Source: Candidatus Poribacteria bacterium (GTDB taxonomy: Bacteria > Poribacteria > WGA-4E > WGA-3G). From it: DNA of 64,000 nucleotides. The stretch lies in assembly GCA_965205025.1 (NCBI GenBank), contig CBDBFU010000009.1, positions 32,001 through 96,000 on the forward strand, written 5' to 3'. Position numbers and translations under genes: made by a program. Positions 43,506 through 53,778 of the stretch are shown here, one piece after another. The stretch's first letter is position 1. Every line of letters begins with the position of its first letter. The notes below the pieces were generated by a model. That model worked only from the letters and a program-made list of their open reading frames with translations, was not told the DNA's origin and did not search any database.

Positions 43506-46500
43506 TTATTCTTCAAGTTGTATGATCTCTTCAGGTACCTGGATTTCATCAAGATCTGATTCTTCAATACCATCTTTGGAAACTTCCAGCTCCAGCCAAC
43601 TTGAGAATCCAGTACCTGCCGGAATTAATCGTCCAAGGATGACGTTTTCCTTCAGACCTGTAAGGTAATCGGTCTGTCCTTCAACAGCAGCATCTGTAAG
43701 AACTTTCGTTGACTGCTGGAAACTTGCAGCAGAAATGAAACTATCAGTACTTAAAGCTGCTTTACTAATACTCTGTAGGAGTGGTTCACCTGTTGCAGGT
43801 GTACCACCTTCATCTGCTACACGTCTATTTTCAGCATGGAACCTACGTCGACTAACCTCATCGTTAGCATAAAATCTGGTATCTCCAATCGTAAGAATAC
43901 GGATTTTCTGTAGCATTTGTCGGACAATTACTTCGACGTGTTTATCATTGATGATATTCTTACCGTAGACAGTCTGAACTTCATCAACAAGATATGTCCA
44001 TACTGCCTCTTCACCTTCAAGTGAAACTCCGTTGATATTTGCTCTACCGATACTAAGTATATCGTGTGGATTCAGATATCCATCCGTTAAGGGTTGTCCA
44101 GCTTCGACAATGTCACCAGCATCAACACGTCGTTTTTCATCGGGGATCGAGTAAAGGCGACTTTTGGCTGCATCATCAACAATCCGATACTGTGGAACAC
44201 CAGCTTTTTGACCCGTTAGCTGCAATTCCCCAGCAATCTCGGCGATTTCAGCTGCATCTTCACGTTTTGGACGTCGTGCTTCAAAAAGCTCAGTCACCCG
44301 TGGTATCCCTACGACAATGTCAAGGTTCGTAGTTTTCTCGTGTAATTCTGCTAACCCGTGTTGTGCATTCACCTTTTCCCCATCTTCAACAGAAACAGAA
44401 TATCCGGCTGGGATAAGGTGTGAAACGCGTCCTCCACCTTCAACGTCAATATCAATCCTGAAGGTTTCAATCAACTCATCAACATCAACACCACCATACT
44501 GTTCTATGGCTCTCTCAAATTCCCAATCGTTTAACTCTTGGCCAACAGTAAGTGTACAGTTTGGATGAATTACCTTTGTAATTTCATAGGTGTTTTTTGA
44601 GGTTAGTGCTGATTTAGCCTTGTAATCAGCATCACTTAAAATTTCATCTTTAGTAACCTCAGATCCAGAGTCGTTAACTGCCGTGACTTTATACACGCGA
44701 TCAGTATCAAAACCCTTATAAAGACGTTGTGCCTTCTTGTATTCATTCTCATCAATTTCCTGTTGTGGGACAAGTGCACAATCTTCATGATGAACAGCAA
44801 GGATCAAATAAAAACGTTGGATCTCAGGCAATGGTGTTTCTGTGTCTCTATGGTGTTTGACGAGAGCTTTGTGATCTGTCTCAGTCAATACTTCCTCTGT
44901 ATCAGCTCCTTCAGGGGTATACTTGTAAAGTTTCTCAAAATCAAAGCCTTTATAGCTTCTTCTGAATCGATTGGATTCAGACTGAGTAATAACCTCATCA
45001 ACAGCTACAGGAAAATCAGGATGATGAATAGCAGAAACTTTATAAAGCCGTTCAACCTCAAATGCTCCTTCGTTCTTAGTAATGTTAACTTCAAATCCAG
45101 GAAATTCCTTAAGAACAGCCTTTTTCTCATTCTCGGTGAGGAGCGTATCGGTTTCTAACTTACAATTTGGATGATACACAGAGGTTATACGATATTTAAG
45201 ACGTTCAGCAGAGAATCCACCGAATTTATCTTTGAGGGAATCATAGTTGTCTTGTTCAATCAATTCACCAGGTTTGAGCGGACATTCACTATGTGATATT
45301 TCTGATACACGATACAGTTCATTACTTAAAAGCGATACTTCAAACGCCTTTTCATTTAGGAATCTATCTCTATATTCCGACTCAGATAATTGTTGTCCGA
45401 CAGTCAGATCAACCCCATCAGATACTTCTGTAACTGTGCGTACTGGATCCCCGAGTTCAAGATGATATTGACTTTCCTCTTCAGGGGTTAACAAGTGTCC
45501 TTCCTTAAATGGACAACTTGTATGGGTAATAGTCTGAATTTCATATCTCATCTCAGCGTTAAGGGTGTTCTGTTTCCGTAAGTATTCACTTTCGGTGAGG
45601 ATATCACCCGATGTGGTTCGATATACCCATTTTCCATCGAAAGGTCGAATCTCAGTTTTCCATTTTTCAGCTTCAGTCTCAGTCACTAATGTACCCTCCT
45701 TCAGAGAACTTTCAGGGTGCATTACCCGTATCACAGGATACTGAGGTTCGGAACAACGGAATAGAGCAAATCGATGTAAACAGGCATTATACTCTTGATC
45801 TGTAAGATACTGTCCTTCCTGTAAGGCAAATCCTTCCCCACTATTAGCCTCAATTACATCTGGACGATTTACGGCTTCAATTACCCGTGTAATGGGTACC
45901 ACCTCAAAACCAGGATAACGCTCCTTGTTCTCCTCATGCTGCTTAATAGTAAGTAGTTCATTCGGTTGGAGTTTACAGTCAGGATGTTCAACTGTCTTCA
46001 CTTTATAGTTTGCTTGGTCAAGATGATCAGCAACTTTTTGAACAATCCAGAGTCCACCTTCTTCACGGACTGTCCTCCCAGGTATAAAATCACGAAAGCG
46101 AACAACACCAGATGCTTTAGCAGGGATCTTCCGGGCAAGACGTTCACTCACATCTTCAACCACACCACCCGTATGAAATGTTCGCATTGTTAACTGTGTT
46201 CCTGGTTCCCCGATTGATTGTGCAGCAATAATTCCGATTGCTTCACCAACATTAACCATTTGTCCTGATGTTAAATCAGAACCGTAACAATGAGCACAAG
46301 ATCCCTTTTCGGTCTCACAGGTAAGTATAGATCTAACACGAACACTGGAGACTTCAGCATCTTCTATTATTTGCGCCATTTGAGGTGTAATCATTGTATC
46401 ACTTTCGACAAGAACTTCATCAGTAGTAGGATGAACTACATCCTCAACTGCCACACGACCACTGATTTTAAATCCTATTGATCCGGCACTCGTAGTGAAT

Positions 46501-49109
46501 TTTTGGATACCATGAACCGTTCCGCAATTTTCCTCTGTTATCATTACATCTTGTGCCACATCAACGAGTTTACGGGTGAGATAACCAGATGCAGCGGTTT
46601 TCATTGCTGTATCAACTAACCCTTTACGGGAGCCGTAGGTAGAAGTAAAGTAATCCAGTACATCTAATCCTTCTCTATAAGAAGATTCAATCGGAGTTGA
46701 CAGGATTTCACCGCTCTGCTTGGATTTCAATCCAACAATAGCACTGATTTGAATAAATGGATTCTTACGTGCTCTGGCACCACTATCCGCCATAAGATGC
46801 ACTGGACTAAATCCTTCCACATCCTTACCTTGTTCAACCAGATAACTTTCCGTGGCAGGAAGTTGACCAAATAAATCCTCCTCAATCTTTATAGTAGCAT
46901 CGAACCAAATACGAATTTTTTCATTCTCTAATTCTTCTGGTTCGAGGTTCTCCTGTTTATAGAGTTTATCAATAGCATTCCGGGCATCAGTCAGTATCTC
47001 GGTCTTATGATCAGGTACAAGGTAATCCTTAATACCTGGTGAAATTCCGCTTCGAGTTGCATACTCAAAACTAAGTTTCTGTAACCGATCTAATAATGAA
47101 ACAGTTTCTGAAGTTCCAAGTTCGTTAAAACAACGTTGAACAAGATCCGATAACCTTCTACTCCGTGCTTCCTCATTAAAGAATGGTATTTCAAGTCCGG
47201 TGATTTCATCTTTCCATTTTAGTGATGCTGTACCATTCGTATGGGGGAGTACTTCGTTAAATATGACACGACCAACAGTTGTTAATATAGGTTCACTATT
47301 TCCTTCAAAGAAGAGAAGAATTGAATCGTGTAATTTTATCGTTCCACATCCATGTGCATGTGTCACCTCATCAACAGATGTAAACCGTCGTTTTGCCCAT
47401 TCCTCGTTTTCTAATGAGGAGAAGATTTTCTTTGATTCAGAACCATTAGTAAGTTCCGTATAAGCAGAATGTAGTAATTCTGCACGCTCAAGATGTTCTG
47501 GAAGTTGTTTGGTAAGAAAACTTGCCCCCAATATCATATCAAGTTCAGGTACTGTAATAGGTTCACCATGGGAAGGTTTCAGTATATTACTACTACTAAG
47601 TAACAACATCTTTGCTTCAGTTCGTGCTTCAATTGACAGTGGTACATGTACAGCCATCTGATCACCATCAAAATCAGCATTAAAAGCTTTACAAACAAGA
47701 GGAGGAATCCGGATAGATTTGCCTTCAACAAGAACAGGCATGAATGCCTGAATACCCAGACGATGGAGTGTTGGAGGACGGTTCAGTAACACAGGATGAT
47801 CCGCAATAACTTCTTCTAATGCTTCCCACACCGGGGAGTCGGGGGTGACGTGTTCAGTCATGTTCTTCCCACGTTTAATAGTTTGAACATGTCCGTCTGC
47901 TAAGAGTTTCTCAATAATGAAGGGTTTAAAGAGTTCTACTGCCATTAACTTTGGAATACCACATTGATGCAACTCTAATTCAGGTCCAACAACAATAACA
48001 CTTCTACCAGAATAGTCAACACGTTTCCCAAGTAAGTTCTGACGGAATCGACCAACTTTACCTTTAAGTATGTCCGATAGTGACTTGAGGGCACGCTTAC
48101 CAGGACCAGTGACGCGACGACCATGTCTCCCATTATCCAAAAACGCATCAACGGATTCTTGTAACATCCGTTTCTCATTCCGTAGAATAACCTCCGGTGA
48201 ACGTAAGTCAATCAGTTTTTGTAATCGGTTATTCCTATTAATCACACGACGATACAAGTCATTGAGATCACTTGTAGCGAATCTTCCACCTTCGAGTGAA
48301 ACTAATGGGCGTAGGTCAGGACTTATGACAGGTAGTACGTCAAGAATCATCCACTCAGGCTGCATCTCTGCTTTATCAAAACCTGCTACCATTTTTAATT
48401 GTTTTGAGAGTTTTACTTTCTTCTGATGGCTTGAGGTCTCTTCAATCTCTTGAGTAAATTTCTCTACATCCTCAGGTAAGTCAATCTTCTGAAGAAGTTC
48501 TTGAATTGCCTCTGCTCCTGTAGCTGCTTTGAATGTATCAGGATGTTTTTGCATTTTAGCATTCATCTCTTGTTCTGTGAGAATATCTTTATGTTCCAAT
48601 TCACAACTATCATCCATAACTTCTGTTACGATAAATGCTTCAAAGTATAAAACACGTTCAACTTGGCGAGAAGCAAGTTCAAGGAATGTCCCAAGTCGTG
48701 AAGGAATACCTTTGAAAAACCATATATGTGAAACTGGGGTGGCAAGTTTGATATAACCAAGCCGTTCTCGTCGAACTTGTGATTTAGTCACCTCAACCCC
48801 ACATTGATCACAAATTAGTCCTTTATGCTTAATTCGCTTGTATTTACCACAACTACACTCAAAATCTTTTTGTGGACCGAAGGTCGCTTCACAAAATAAA
48901 CCTTGGTGTTCTGGTCGGAAACTTCGATAATTAATTGTCTCTGCCTTCTTAATTTCACCACAATCACATGTACCTTTTTCAGGACAAGACCATGTTTCAC
49001 TTGCTGGATTCCGTCGTTTACAGGATGTGCGTTTTGCCCAATCTCTAATTGTTTCGGGTGATGCGATGCTTATAGAGATACGATTAAAACGGTTTTCTTT
49101 GTCTGCCAT
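43506..49109 (-). CDS. rpoC: RNA polymerase beta' subunit with a large lineage-specific insertion
   Basis: NADFDGD, GKRVDYSGRSVI, QSIGEPGTQLTMRTFH, SAASFQ, LKENVILGRLIPAGTG. Confidence 0.99.
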   Translation of the reverse strand: MADKENRFNRISISIASPETIRDWAKRTSCKRRNPASETWSCPEKGTCDCGEIKKAETINYRSFRPEHQGLFCEATFGPQKDFECSCGKYKRIKHKGLICDQCGVEVTKSQVRRERLGYIKLATPVSHIWFFKGIPSRLGTFLELASRQVERVLYFEAFIVTEVMDDSCELEHKDILTEQEMNAKMQKHPDTFKAATGAEAIQELLQKIDLPEDVEKFTQEIEETSSHQKKVKLSKQLKMVAGFDKAEMQPEWMILDVLPVISPDLRPLVSLEGGRFATSDLNDLYRRVINRNNRLQKLIDLRSPEVILRNEKRMLQESVDAFLDNGRHGRRVTGPGKRALKSLSDILKGKVGRFRQNLLGKRVDYSGRSVIVVGPELELHQCGIPKLMAVELFKPFIIEKLLADGHVQTIKRGKNMTEHVTPDSPVWEALEEVIADHPVLLNRPPTLHRLGIQAFMPVLVEGKSIRIPPLVCKAFNADFDGDQMAVHVPLSIEARTEAKMLLLSSSNILKPSHGEPITVPELDMILGASFLTKQLPEHLERAELLHSAYTELTNGSESKKIFSSLENEEWAKRRFTSVDEVTHAHGCGTIKLHDSILLFFEGNSEPILTTVGRVIFNEVLPHTNGTASLKWKDEITGLEIPFFNEEARSRRLSDLVQRCFNELGTSETVSLLDRLQKLSFEYATRSGISPGIKDYLVPDHKTEILTDARNAIDKLYKQENLEPEELENEKIRIWFDATIKIEEDLFGQLPATESYLVEQGKDVEGFSPVHLMADSGARARKNPFIQISAIVGLKSKQSGEILSTPIESSYREGLDVLDYFTSTYGSRKGLVDTAMKTAASGYLTRKLVDVAQDVMITEENCGTVHGIQKFTTSAGSIGFKISGRVAVEDVVHPTTDEVLVESDTMITPQMAQIIEDAEVSSVRVRSILTCETEKGSCAHCYGSDLTSGQMVNVGEAIGIIAAQSIGEPGTQLTMRTFHTGGVVEDVSERLARKIPAKASGVVRFRDFIPGRTVREEGGLWIVQKVADHLDQANYKVKTVEHPDCKLQPNELLTIKQHEENKERYPGFEVVPITRVIEAVNRPDVIEANSGEGFALQEGQYLTDQEYNACLHRFALFRCSEPQYPVIRVMHPESSLKEGTLVTETEAEKWKTEIRPFDGKWVYRTTSGDILTESEYLRKQNTLNAEMRYEIQTITHTSCPFKEGHLLTPEEESQYHLELGDPVRTVTEVSDGVDLTVGQQLSESEYRDRFLNEKAFEVSLLSNELYRVSEISHSECPLKPGELIEQDNYDSLKDKFGGFSAERLKYRITSVYHPNCKLETDTLLTENEKKAVLKEFPGFEVNITKNEGAFEVERLYKVSAIHHPDFPVAVDEVITQSESNRFRRSYKGFDFEKLYKYTPEGADTEEVLTETDHKALVKHHRDTETPLPEIQRFYLILAVHHEDCALVPQQEIDENEYKKAQRLYKGFDTDRVYKVTAVNDSGSEVTKDEILSDADYKAKSALTSKNTYEITKVIHPNCTLTVGQELNDWEFERAIEQYGGVDVDELIETFRIDIDVEGGGRVSHLIPAGYSVSVEDGEKVNAQHGLAELHEKTTNLDIVVGIPRVTELFEARRPKREDAAEIAEIAGELQLTGQKAGVPQYRIVDDAAKSRLYSIPDEKRRVDAGDIVEAGQPLTDGYLNPHDILSIGRANINGVSLEGEEAVWTYLVDEVQTVYGKNIINDKHVEVIVRQMLQKIRILTIGDTRFYANDEVSRRRFHAENRRVADEGGTPATGEPLLQSISKAALSTDSFISAASFQQSTKVLTDAAVEGQTDYLTGLKENVILGRLIPAGTGFSSWLELEVSKDGIEESDLDEIQVPEEIIQLEE

Positions 49110-49209: not shown

Positions 49210-52200
49210 CTATTCGGTATCGTCGGTATCCCAAGTAAGTTTAAGAGGGGGTTCATCATCAACAGGTTCCATCGTATCTACCGTATGTAAGATTGGTAGA
49301 CCCGACTCATGAAGAGCTGCTTGGATTGAATCAAGCTCTGACGGGTTACCTTCAGATAATTCAACATTTAATCCAAGACTTTGAAGTTCTCTAACTAACA
49401 CATTGAAGGACTCTGGTGTACCGGGTTTCAATGGGCTTTGACCTTTGACAATTGATTCGTAGATTTTAGTCCTACCCTTAACATCATCCGATTTGATGGT
49501 CAACATTTCTTGAAGGGTATGTGCAGCACCGTATGCTTCTAATGCCCATACTTCCATTTCACCAAGACGTTGTCCTCCGTGTTGTGCTTTCCCACCGAGG
49601 GGTTGTTGTGTTACTAAGGAGTATGGACCCGTCGAACGGGCATGCATCTTATCTGCAACAAGGTGGTTCAGTTTCAGGAAATAGACATAACCAACTGTTA
49701 CTTCCTGTCCAAACGCGTCACCTGTACGTCCATCGTATAGAACACTTTTACCAGTTTTCTTGACGCTCTCAAGTAATTCTGTATCTTCTAACATCTTAAA
49801 CACTTCTGCTTCTGTAGCCCCATCAAATACAGGAGACGCCACATAATAACCGAGTTCTTTACATGCTAATCCTAAATGAATTTCAAGGATTTGACCAACA
49901 TTCATGCGTGATGGAACTCCGAGAGGATTCAAGACAATATCAACAGGTGTGCCATCAGGAAGATATGGCATATCTTCTTCAGGTAGAATCTTGGCAACAA
50001 CACCTTTATTTCCGTATCGTCCAGCCATTTTATCACCGATGGATATTGGACGTCTGCTTGCAACATATACTTTTACGAGTTTCAAAACACCGGGTTTTAG
50101 TTCTTCACCGGAGGTAAGTTTTTCTAATGCCTCCTCTTTTTCATCCGTATATGCTTTTTCCCGTCCGACAGCGAGTTCTTGCAGACTTTTAATATAATCA
50201 ACAGTTTCAGTATCTGTAATCTGAAGCGTTTCAAGTTGCTTTTGTGATAACCCCTCAAGAAAATCACGTGTCAGTATATCTCCAGCCTCTAATTGCTGAG
50301 GTGAGTCAGATTTTTCGGTATCTTCAGGTTCATCATCATAAAGGATAGTTGTAGGATACGCCAACTCTTTGTTTAGCAAAGAGTCGCGCATCTCCTCTGT
50401 TAAACGATCTGAAATCTGTTGACGCTGTTCTTCCCAGGTCTGTTCAATTTGCTTACGGAGTGAATCTTGCCGTAGGGCAGTTCTGTCACTATTGGGTGTC
50501 GCTTGTCGTGAAAAGACTTTCACATCAATTACAACACCTTCGACACCCGGGCGTGTGTAGGCAGAAGCATCTTTTACTTCTTTTGATTTTTCACCAAATA
50601 TAGCACGTAGAAGTTTTTCTTCGGGTCCTGTCTCACTTTCACCTTTAGGAGAGATTTTACCTACCAGGATACTGCCCGTTCCTACAACACTACCTATCCT
50701 TATAATACCTTCGTCATCAAGCTGTGCCAGACTCCGTGCTGACATGTTAGGAATATCTCTGGTAATCTCTTCATCACCCATTTTTGTTTGCCTGGCCGCG
50801 ACTTCAAATTCTTCAATATGGATAGAGGTGAATGTATCCTGCTTTATAAGAGATTCACTGATAAGTATTGAATCCTCAAAGTTATGTCCACCCCACGGCA
50901 TATAAGCACATAAGATATTCCGTCCAAGTGCCAGTTCCCCACCTTCCGTTGCTGTGCCATCTGCAATGACATCTCCAGTTTCAACAACATCTCCAATATT
51001 CACACGTGGACGCTGATGAATACAAGTACCACTATTACTACGTTTGAAGTTTTTTAGTTTATAAACATCATAACCCATTTCACTGAAAGCATGTTCACCT
51101 TCTTCAACATGGAGTGCTTGTCCAGTTCGGATGAGTATTTCTTCTGCGTCAACGCTTGAAACAACACCACCCCGATGTGCGATAACCATTGCATTCGCAT
51201 CACGTGCAGCACGATGTTCCATTCCTGTACCCACCCATGGTGCTTCAGGGCTGATCAAGGGTACAGCTTGTCTTTGGTGGTTAGCACCCATCAATGCACG
51301 GTTAGCATCTTCGTGTTCAAGAAATGGAACAAGAGCAGCGGAAACACCAACGATCTGTTGCGGGGCAATACCTACATAATCTATCTCTTTCAGATCTCGT
51401 TCAAGCACCTCTTCACCCTTACGACTGCGAACAGGAACGTCTTTTTTACGGGCAGGGATAGCGTCAGCCGGTGCAATATGGAACTTGTCCTCAGCATCTG
51501 CTGTTAGATACTCAACATTTTGAGTAATTTTACCATTGCTAACTGTACGATACGGTGTTTCTAAAAAACCGTAAGGATTAACTCTGGCAAACGTTGCTAA
51601 TGAAACTATAAGGCCGATTGATGGACCTTCAGGGGTTTCTAATGGACACACGCGACCATAATGGGTACGATGTACATCTCGAACCGCCGCAGTAGCGCGA
51701 TCTCGATGTAGTCCTCCAGGACCAATAGCTGAAATTCTTCGTTTATGCGTGAGTTCATCTAATGGGTTTATCTGTTGCATAAACTGGGAAAGTTGATTTG
51801 ATCCGAAAAACTCACGAAGCGCACTCATGAGCGGCTTTGGGTTTACTAAGTTTTTGGGATTCTTTAACTGGGCATCGGCAGTTGTGCTCAGTTTCTCACG
51901 TGCTGCCCGACGCATTTGTAACATAGCAATACGAAATTGGTTTTCAAGAAGTTCTCCAATAACACGAACTCGACGATTTCCAAGATGATCTAAATCATCA
52001 ACTTCTTTATGTCCGTTTCGAATATGCATCAGGTGTTGTAATGTGGCAGCAATATCTTCTCGACGAAGAACCCGATTTTCTTCATCAGGCAACCCTTCGG
52101 ATTCTTCCTGATATACTTCTAAATCACCCAGTTGTGAGTTGAGTTTGTATCTACCAACCGTACCTAAATCGTAACGTGCACCATCAAAAAATAATCGTTC

Positions 52201-53232
52201 AATACATGCCGATGCGGCTTCTCGTGTCGGGGCATCACCTGGGCGTAGGGTGCGAAAAATTTCAAGTAATGCACCTTCTTGCAATGTACCTCCACCATAC
52301 GCTTTGACAGTGTCACGGGACAATGTATTTCGTAAATACCGTAGTTCTTGTTCGTCGACTTCTACCAATACTTCAACCTCTGAGATTTTAGCATCGATGA
52401 GACGATCATATTCAATCTCAGACAACTTAGTGTTAGCCTCAAGTAATACTTCACCCGAATTTGAATCAACGATGGGTTCAACGATTACACGGCCTATAAC
52501 ATCTGTAGTCAACTTAACATTTTCTGTATCACCAAATAGTTTGAGGATTTCTGCATCAGTTTCCCATCCAAGCGCTCTTAAAAGTACTGTGGCTAAGATT
52601 TTCTTTTTTCTATCTAAACGTACGTGAATACAATCTTTTGAATCAAATTCAAACTCTACCCAAGCACCACGATAAGGTATAATCTGCCCTGTTGGAAGTT
52701 TTTGTACACTGGGAGCAGATTTATCAAGAAATATAACACCTGGTGATCGATGTAATTGATTTACGATAACACGTTCGGATCCATTGATTATAAATGTACC
52801 GTTCTCAGTCATCAATGGAATATCCCCAAGATACACTTCTGATTCAGTAATATCTAAAACCCGTGTTTGACCAGTGTCTTCATCTTTTTCTCGTTCAACA
52901 CACATCAGCTTGGCTTGAAGCCTAACTTGATAATTTAATCCACGTGCTTGACAATCAGATAGATCATGCGTGGGTGGACTGAGTGCGTAACTAACGAACT
53001 CAAGACTCGTTGTATCTTTAAAATCATAAATTGGAAAAACTTCTTTGAAGAGTGCTTGCAACCCTTTTGTTTCACGTTCACTTTCTGCAACATCACGCTG
53101 CAAAAATGCAGCATAGGAGCGTTTTTGGGTTTCAATTAAATCAGGTAGGTCAAGAATTGATGGGGTTTTGGCAAAGGAGATGCGCTTACGGAGAGCAGCC
53201 GGACTTCCATTATTTTTAGTAGTAGCTGGCAT
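49210..53232 (-). CDS. rpoB: RNA polymerase beta subunit
   Basis: [61 protein letters not shown] RBS supports ATG 53232. Confidence 0.99.
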   Translation of the reverse strand: [1340 protein letters not shown]

Positions 53233-53778
53233 AAAGTTCACCTTGTGCAGATTGCAGATGGGTTGAAGGTTTTACTATCGGACTTTCGTAACAACTAATT
53301 GACAGTATACCGATCGGATAACAATATTCACGACAACAGATACTGATTTCTACTGAATGCGTTTTATTCAATGCTGTTGTATGAGTTTCTAACATACTTT
53401 GATTTATAGGAATGGTGACTCGTTTTGAATTGTGAAATGGATGGCGTATTCGTTCTCACATCCAATAATTGTGACTCTACTTACCCTAAGATATTAAGGA
53501 TACGGATCACTATATACAGATGTCTATTGATAGGAAGACACGCTATTGACGGTAACATGTTCAAGGCGCGAAAAGACACTTGACTACACACCACTTTTAA
53601 ATAACATGCAAGTCAAGTACTGGATATTCTTTGACACTACCGCAATCAATTATAGACATCCCTTGTTTAGATACAAAAACAGTTGCCAATATATCAAAGA
53701 AGGTGTATACTTCACTAAACTAAAGCGACTCTAACTTCAAGGCTAATACTTATTTACCTTCTTAAGGCGTAACGTAAC

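Follow-up and report, generated by a model that had tools for sequence, protein, structure and literature searches.

The genes for the two largest subunits of RNA polymerase (RNAP), rpoC and rpoB, were analyzed in a stretch of 64,000 nucleotides (hereafter, the window) from a sponge-associated Candidatus Poribacteria bacterium (GenBank assembly GCA_965205025.1, contig CBDBFU010000009.1, positions 32,001 to 96,000). Positions below refer to the window, and all features described lie on its minus strand. The rpoC gene (43506..49109) was assigned by its open reading frame (ORF), translation and Pfam content; it encodes a β' subunit of 1867 amino acids (aa) containing Pfam Rpb1 domains 1-5 (E 8e-70 to 3e-4). 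The ORF of rpoB (49210..53241; 1343 aa) lies directly upstream. Both arms of the trigger loop are intact and resemble the E. coli sequence closely. The N-terminal arm ends with TFHTGG (aa 977-982; 46164..46181), which corresponds to TFHIGG in E. coli, and the C-terminal arm starts with DIVVGIPRV (aa 1597-1605; 44295..44321). The two motifs are separated by 614 aa (44322-46163). An earlier note, made from the sequence alone, had reported about 600 aa at 44320-46160 and recognized this trigger-loop position as that of SI3; both statements are correct, and the strings that it quoted are all present. We consider it probable that this insert is a lineage-specific element of the SI3 type, in which a sandwich-barrel hybrid motif (SBHM) is split by 13 modules of the β-β' module 2 (BBM2) type, and that it serves as an arm coupled to the trigger loop.

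The insert consists of three parts: 51 residues assigned to the N-terminal half of a host SBHM (aa 983-1033; 46011..46163), a tandem array of 517 aa (aa 1034-1550; 44460..46010), and 46 residues assigned to its C-terminal half (aa 1551-1596; 44322..44459). The array was delineated by in-register alignment, a profile-profile matrix, a pooled hidden Markov model (HMM) and structure prediction, while the C-terminal half rests on a structure search and a weak Pfam RPOC_hybrid match (aa 1563-1622, E 0.07). When aligned in register, the array splits into 13 segments of ~40 aa each: R1 (45885-46010), R2 (45744-45884), R3 (45627-45743), R4 (45549-45626), R5 (45444-45548), R6 (45318-45443), R7 (45195-45317), R8 (45048-45194), R9 (44928-45047), R10 (44814-44927), R11 (44697-44813), R12 (44592-44696) and R13 (44460-44591).

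One profile per segment was built from 69 orthologues, and all profiles were compared against each other using hhalign. The eight units with an H-P-x-C-type loop (R1, R3, R5, R7, R8, R9, R11 and R13) matched each other with probabilities of 82-99%. Units R2, R6 and R12 reached 80-96% against several other units, the truncated R4 (26 aa) reached 70-76%, and R10 59% at most. The two flanking SBHM halves, serving as an internal negative control, scored 0-3% against every unit. An HMM pooled from 121 unit sequences, all of them trigger-loop units, detected 11 units in the insert at an independent E-value (iE) below 1e-5. The reversed insert gave no match with this HMM, and only 3 of 100 shuffled inserts produced any match below 0.01, the best being 0.0014. 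The array is thus composed of 11 firm copies and two degenerate ones. The ~12 tandem copies of the earlier note are therefore real repeats with a consensus close to the one it gave, although its count requires this adjustment, and the self-similarity that it proposed to check is significant.

When units are typed as canonical (c) or degenerate (d), their order along the array is c d c d c d c c c d c d c, and this alternation suggests growth by cassettes of two units. At the DNA level, no repeat was detectable in the array, and the best identity between two units of one protein has a median of 0.44 in proteins without an endonuclease domain. The array is therefore old. It is also acidic, with a net charge of -37 and an isoelectric point of 4.9.

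A single copy of a related module resides in the N-terminal region of the same protein (aa 159-193; 48531..48635), as judged by the HMM and by superposition. RpoC residues 161-190, which were outside the HMM training set, were detected with iE 6.7e-7 when the whole protein was searched and 3.7e-8 when aa 1-982 were searched alone. The profile of this resident module matched the array units with probabilities of up to 85%, which bears out the resemblance to the N-terminal segment claimed in the earlier note. In addition, the unit model superposes on residues 142-192 of E. coli β', the equivalent of aa 159-193 here. This element, which all bacteria have as one resident copy in the clamp region, lacks the H-P-x-C loop.

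The whole insert was modeled by AlphaFold2 from an alignment of 24 sequences, with a predicted local distance difference test (pLDDT) score of 82.4 and a predicted template modeling (pTM) score of 0.42, and the fragment R7-R9 was modeled with pLDDT 84.0 and pTM 0.72. The predicted order of elements in a unit is strand, long loop, short strand, helix and strand. Since a helix is predicted in every unit, the units are modeled as modules other than SBHMs. The whole-insert model was then compared with 48,161 representatives of the PDB. The top structure matches align its two ends together (model residues 7 to 610); on this basis the 51 and 46 flanking residues are predicted to form one SBHM with the array nested within, as the split SBHM-like frame of the earlier note had anticipated. 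In the models, the counterparts of this host SBHM are the SBHM of SI3 in E. coli and the tail SBHM of Si3 in cyanobacteria. Foldseek searches of the PDB with the whole insert and with R7-R9 gave no match at E 1e-3 or better, and the weak rows that they returned were mostly RNAP β' chains. Similarly, phmmer found no match of the whole insert to PDB sequences at E up to 10, a search of the ESM Atlas with the array returned no usable match, and at the DNA level the window rpoC matched nothing in a distant search of E. coli genomes.

The phylogenetic distribution of the insert was assessed in 61 genomes of the phylum Poribacteria, 58 of them of high quality. It was found in 36 genomes, namely that of the window and 35 of the 36 others of its family, and in none of the 24 genomes of the seven other families. 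In the window's genus, the trigger-loop insert measures 614-616 aa and has 11-12 units at iE below 0.01 (all 23 complete loci). The six loci of two sister genera carry 627-647 aa with 9-10 units, while inserts of only 179-369 aa, with no unit, occupy the site in ten genomes of the seven other families. Of the 69 orthologues, 52 have an insert of exactly 614 aa, and the whole set ranges from 613 to 635 aa. An array with about ten or more units was therefore already present in the ancestor of one family, and its length has been kept since. A search of 1.84 billion representative proteins with the insert gave only 17 matches with E of 1e-3 or better, and the named relatives are all Candidatus Poribacteria. 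A search with the unit profile yielded 89 proteins, and every one with a family assignment is RpoC or RpoB.

Identity to relatives is lower in the insert (60-75%) than in the core (80-85%). However, the ratio of nonsynonymous to synonymous substitution rates (dN/dS) of the insert against two close relatives was 0.081 and 0.088, compared with 0.101 and 0.063 for core aa 502-982. The insert is under purifying selection as strong as that on the catalytic core.

Larger trigger-loop inserts are present in the more distant proteins P0073 (926 aa), P0074 (1345 aa) and P0075 (867 aa), and also in P0104 (966 aa). The P0075 cluster includes a protein labelled Poribacteria, and P0074 has two identical 39-aa units that lie 116 aa apart. 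The insert of P0074 is roughly double the length of the 645-aa cyanobacterial Si3, which has been called the largest lineage-specific insert known (Qayyum 2024, bioRxiv 10.1101/2024.01.11.575193).

In two RpoB proteins of the sister genera, P0076 and P0077, the unit HMM detected five to six tandem units (aa 234-468; iE 2.8e-14 to 2.8e-3), which occupy the β-i4 gap in an alignment with E. coli β. This site is predicted to hold one to six tandem BBM2 repeats, two of which are present in β-i4 of the E. coli crystal structure (Opalka 2010, PMC2939025), and Firmicute β-i5 is described as two BBM2 units (bioRxiv 10.1101/2022.01.17.476619). Because homologous tandem repeats occur exactly where the literature places BBM2, the array units are likely, though not proven, to be of the BBM2 type; like BBM2, they are small modules found in tandem in lineage-specific inserts of β and β', notably at β-i4. 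The claim of the earlier note that a different module was amplified here thus stands insofar as the module is predicted to differ from an SBHM, but it is probably no new kind of module, being homologous to the RpoB repeats at the β-i4 site.

Several results weigh against this assignment. The unit HMM had no match in E. coli β, including β-i4. In hhalign comparisons with the β segment that is the orthologue of the second BBM2 unit in E. coli, the probability was 54% (E 1.3e-4) with 4 sequences and fell to 17.6% (E 1.4e-3) with 29. Profile searches of the PDB with 13 or 68 units reached β' near aa 141-175 at E 0.1-1.2 only, and the solved BBM2 units of E. coli gave no direct match, in sequence or in fold. 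Alternatively, the units could have a fold of their own, and their likeness to β' 142-192 and to the repeats at the β-i4 site would then reflect a Poribacteria-specific module family that merely colonized the same sites. We regard such an origin as unlikely, because the units and the universal β and β' elements are alike in the order of secondary structures and have in common a helix start of the L-T-E-x-E type, and because the RpoB arrays lie exactly at β-i4, the described site of one to six BBM2 repeats. Furthermore, BBM2 units are short and divergent, so that weak scores are to be expected.

The window RpoB has no tandem array at the β-i4 site in its 1343 aa, and its one weak module-like stretch has a best iE of 0.092. 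In two further RpoB proteins of the sister genera, P0144 and P0145, unit arrays were observed at the β-i4 site, with a second array near aa 1363-1517.

The recurrent H-x-x-C pairs had led the earlier note to propose that the units may bind metal, in which case the array would be a string of zinc sites. The pair does recur, but His and Cys occur together in only 6 of the 13 units, and the Cys position is variable: R2, R3, R6, R9 and R12 have F, V or S in this column, the pattern of a buried small or hydrophobic position. A zinc-binding repeat should have four conserved ligands per site, whereas the sequence of a unit offers only this His and Cys, and even two or three ligands per unit would be insufficient. 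Most units with both residues (R1, R5, R11 and R13) adjoin ligand-free ones. The H-P motif also occurs without Cys in universal β and β' elements (H-P-E-T-G-E type). Metal binding by the array is consequently improbable, and this part of the earlier note was not upheld. The insert could also be a misassembly, an intein or a row of degenerate SBHMs, but its unusual size is all that speaks for any of these. An artefact is contradicted by its presence in 36 of 61 genomes, single-contig assemblies included, together with the open frame and purifying selection. Pfam detects no intein or Hint domain, its only matches being to Rpb1 domains and, weakly, to RPOC_hybrid, and the flanks are predicted to form an SBHM. 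As to a row of SBHMs, comparison of the units with the SBHM halves gave probabilities of only 0-3% and a helix is predicted in each unit, so the SBHM match that the earlier note named as contrary evidence was not seen. We consider these three explanations refuted and give them practically no weight.

A further possible source of the array is a selfish cassette. In six related RpoC proteins (P0016, P0019, P0025, P0030, P0031 and P0033), a second in-frame insert of 361-546 aa follows the equivalent of window rpoC aa 904 (about window position 46398). It contains a REase_MTES_1575/DUF559 endonuclease domain in four of the six and three to six further units of the same module, located after the endonuclease domain where this is present. 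Several of these units are nearly identical, and by its sequence the second insert looks like a young, growing array. In P0073, P0074 and P0104, an endonuclease domain lies inside the trigger-loop array itself. Unit pairs at least 87% identical were found in 8 of 12 proteins with REase_MTES_1575 and in 2 of 102 without it, although these 12 come from no more than two or three independent lineages. The module was also seen three times in P0112, a TPR-repeat protein of 938 aa from the representative library (iE 2.6e-12, 2.7e-10 and 1.5e-3), the only occurrence observed outside RNAP. The endonuclease next to or inside the arrays, the excess of highly identical pairs beside it, and the spread of the module to a second β' site, two RpoB sites and a TPR protein would all fit a selfish in-frame cassette (endonuclease plus modules) that was domesticated and left the array as a remnant with no adaptive role of its own. 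In the window, however, Pfam detects no endonuclease domain in the array and there are no young copies, while the fixed length and a dN/dS of 0.08-0.09, equal to that of the core, argue for function; moreover, the association with the endonuclease is limited to the few independent lineages mentioned above. A remnant devoid of function is therefore a rather poor candidate. Somewhat better, but still tentative, is a scenario in which one small RNAP module of Poribacteria proliferates and seeds in-frame arrays in β' (the trigger loop and the second site) as well as in β (β-i4 and the C-terminal part), and appears in a protein outside RNAP. Young arrays would grow beside REase_MTES_1575, and the array in the window would be an old, fixed product, now a functional arm that replaces an Si3-type SBHM array in an enzyme working without Gre or DksA.

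Apart from the array, the N-terminal region of RpoC has four cysteines (C30, C42, C48 and C50) in an additional stretch at aa 30-50 (48960-49022), between a conserved Trp and the EIKKAETINY motif and upstream of the usual β' zinc site. The Poribacteria consensus retains this stretch, which E. coli lacks and which may be an additional zinc knuckle.

Returning to the preferred interpretation of the insert as an SI3-type arm built of BBM2-type modules, the function that we propose is wholly inferred. The array, which is tethered to both arms of the trigger loop, would form an acidic arm whose mass, judged by its 517 aa, is about 58 kDa. Because of this double tethering, it would have to move with the loop at each folding and unfolding. 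Such a moving arm would tune catalysis and pausing, as does SI3 in E. coli, and might, like cyanobacterial Si3, extend to a partner or elsewhere on the enzyme. It would lie at the secondary-channel rim, and no Gre factor or DksA was detected in its lineage. Together, the same site, a similar size, the same nested plan and the different brick would make it a convergent counterpart of cyanobacterial Si3. One point that tempers this picture is the pTM of the whole-insert model, which leaves the overall shape of the arm uncertain; another comes from the distribution of the secondary-channel factors.

The GreA_GreB_N domain was found in none of the 61 genomes of the phylum, and the GreA_GreB C-terminal domain gave only three weak matches, all within ORFs of 1346-1455 aa. 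The DksA zinc finger was found in none of the 57 genomes of families f1-f5 and in all four genomes of the three deepest families. The window's genome, 95.5% complete, has no GreA_GreB_N, Gre C-terminal domain or DksA zinc finger. These losses extend to families with inserts of 179-369 aa and no units, and are therefore not tied to the array, which we rejected as their cause; at most, the loss of Gre and DksA came first and was permissive. This differs from the cyanobacterial parallel, in that Gre is missing also in Poribacteria families without the big insert. In cyanobacteria, which are described as lacking Gre/DksA factors, the 645-aa Si3 is reported to block the Gre/DksA site (Qayyum 2024).

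As a separate observation, the related proteins P0013, P0028 and P0067 carry inserts of 49-58 aa and 278-350 aa with coiled-coil-like sequence at the site equivalent to window rpoC aa 709-722. The region is that of the rim helices, on which secondary-channel factors dock in other bacteria.

Compared with known systems, the Poribacteria insert has a composition of its own. SI3 of E. coli β' has 188 aa and consists of two SBHMs only, whereas the insert described here has 614 aa with one SBHM and 13 modules that are predicted not to be SBHMs. The 645-aa Si3 of cyanobacteria and plastids is an SBHM array set in a tail SBHM, while the brick in Poribacteria is a module of ~40 aa predicted to contain a helix; in addition, rpoC is split into two genes in cyanobacteria but not in Poribacteria, and the insert does not qualify as an Si3. 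The likeness to the BBM2 arrays of E. coli β-i4 and of β-i5 in Bacillus and Clostridioides lies in the small tandem modules. However, those arrays belong to β, are located on the lobe and comprise at most six units, in contrast to 13 units in the β' trigger loop, inside an SBHM. Trigger-loop inserts have been described as two to five SBHMs (Bao and Landick 2021). Literature searches outside the catalogues of Iyer 2004 and of Lane and Darst 2010 found no published description of this insert. What is new is an SI3-type trigger-loop insert built of BBM2-like modules instead of SBHMs.

An arm of equal size at the same site, made of a different brick, provides a natural test of whether mass, reach or the brick itself matters. 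Poribacteria also offer a second lineage without Gre factors for the study of proofreading and pausing. Finally, since young arrays adjoin an endonuclease domain in this phylum, lineage-specific RNAP inserts may here be caught in the making.
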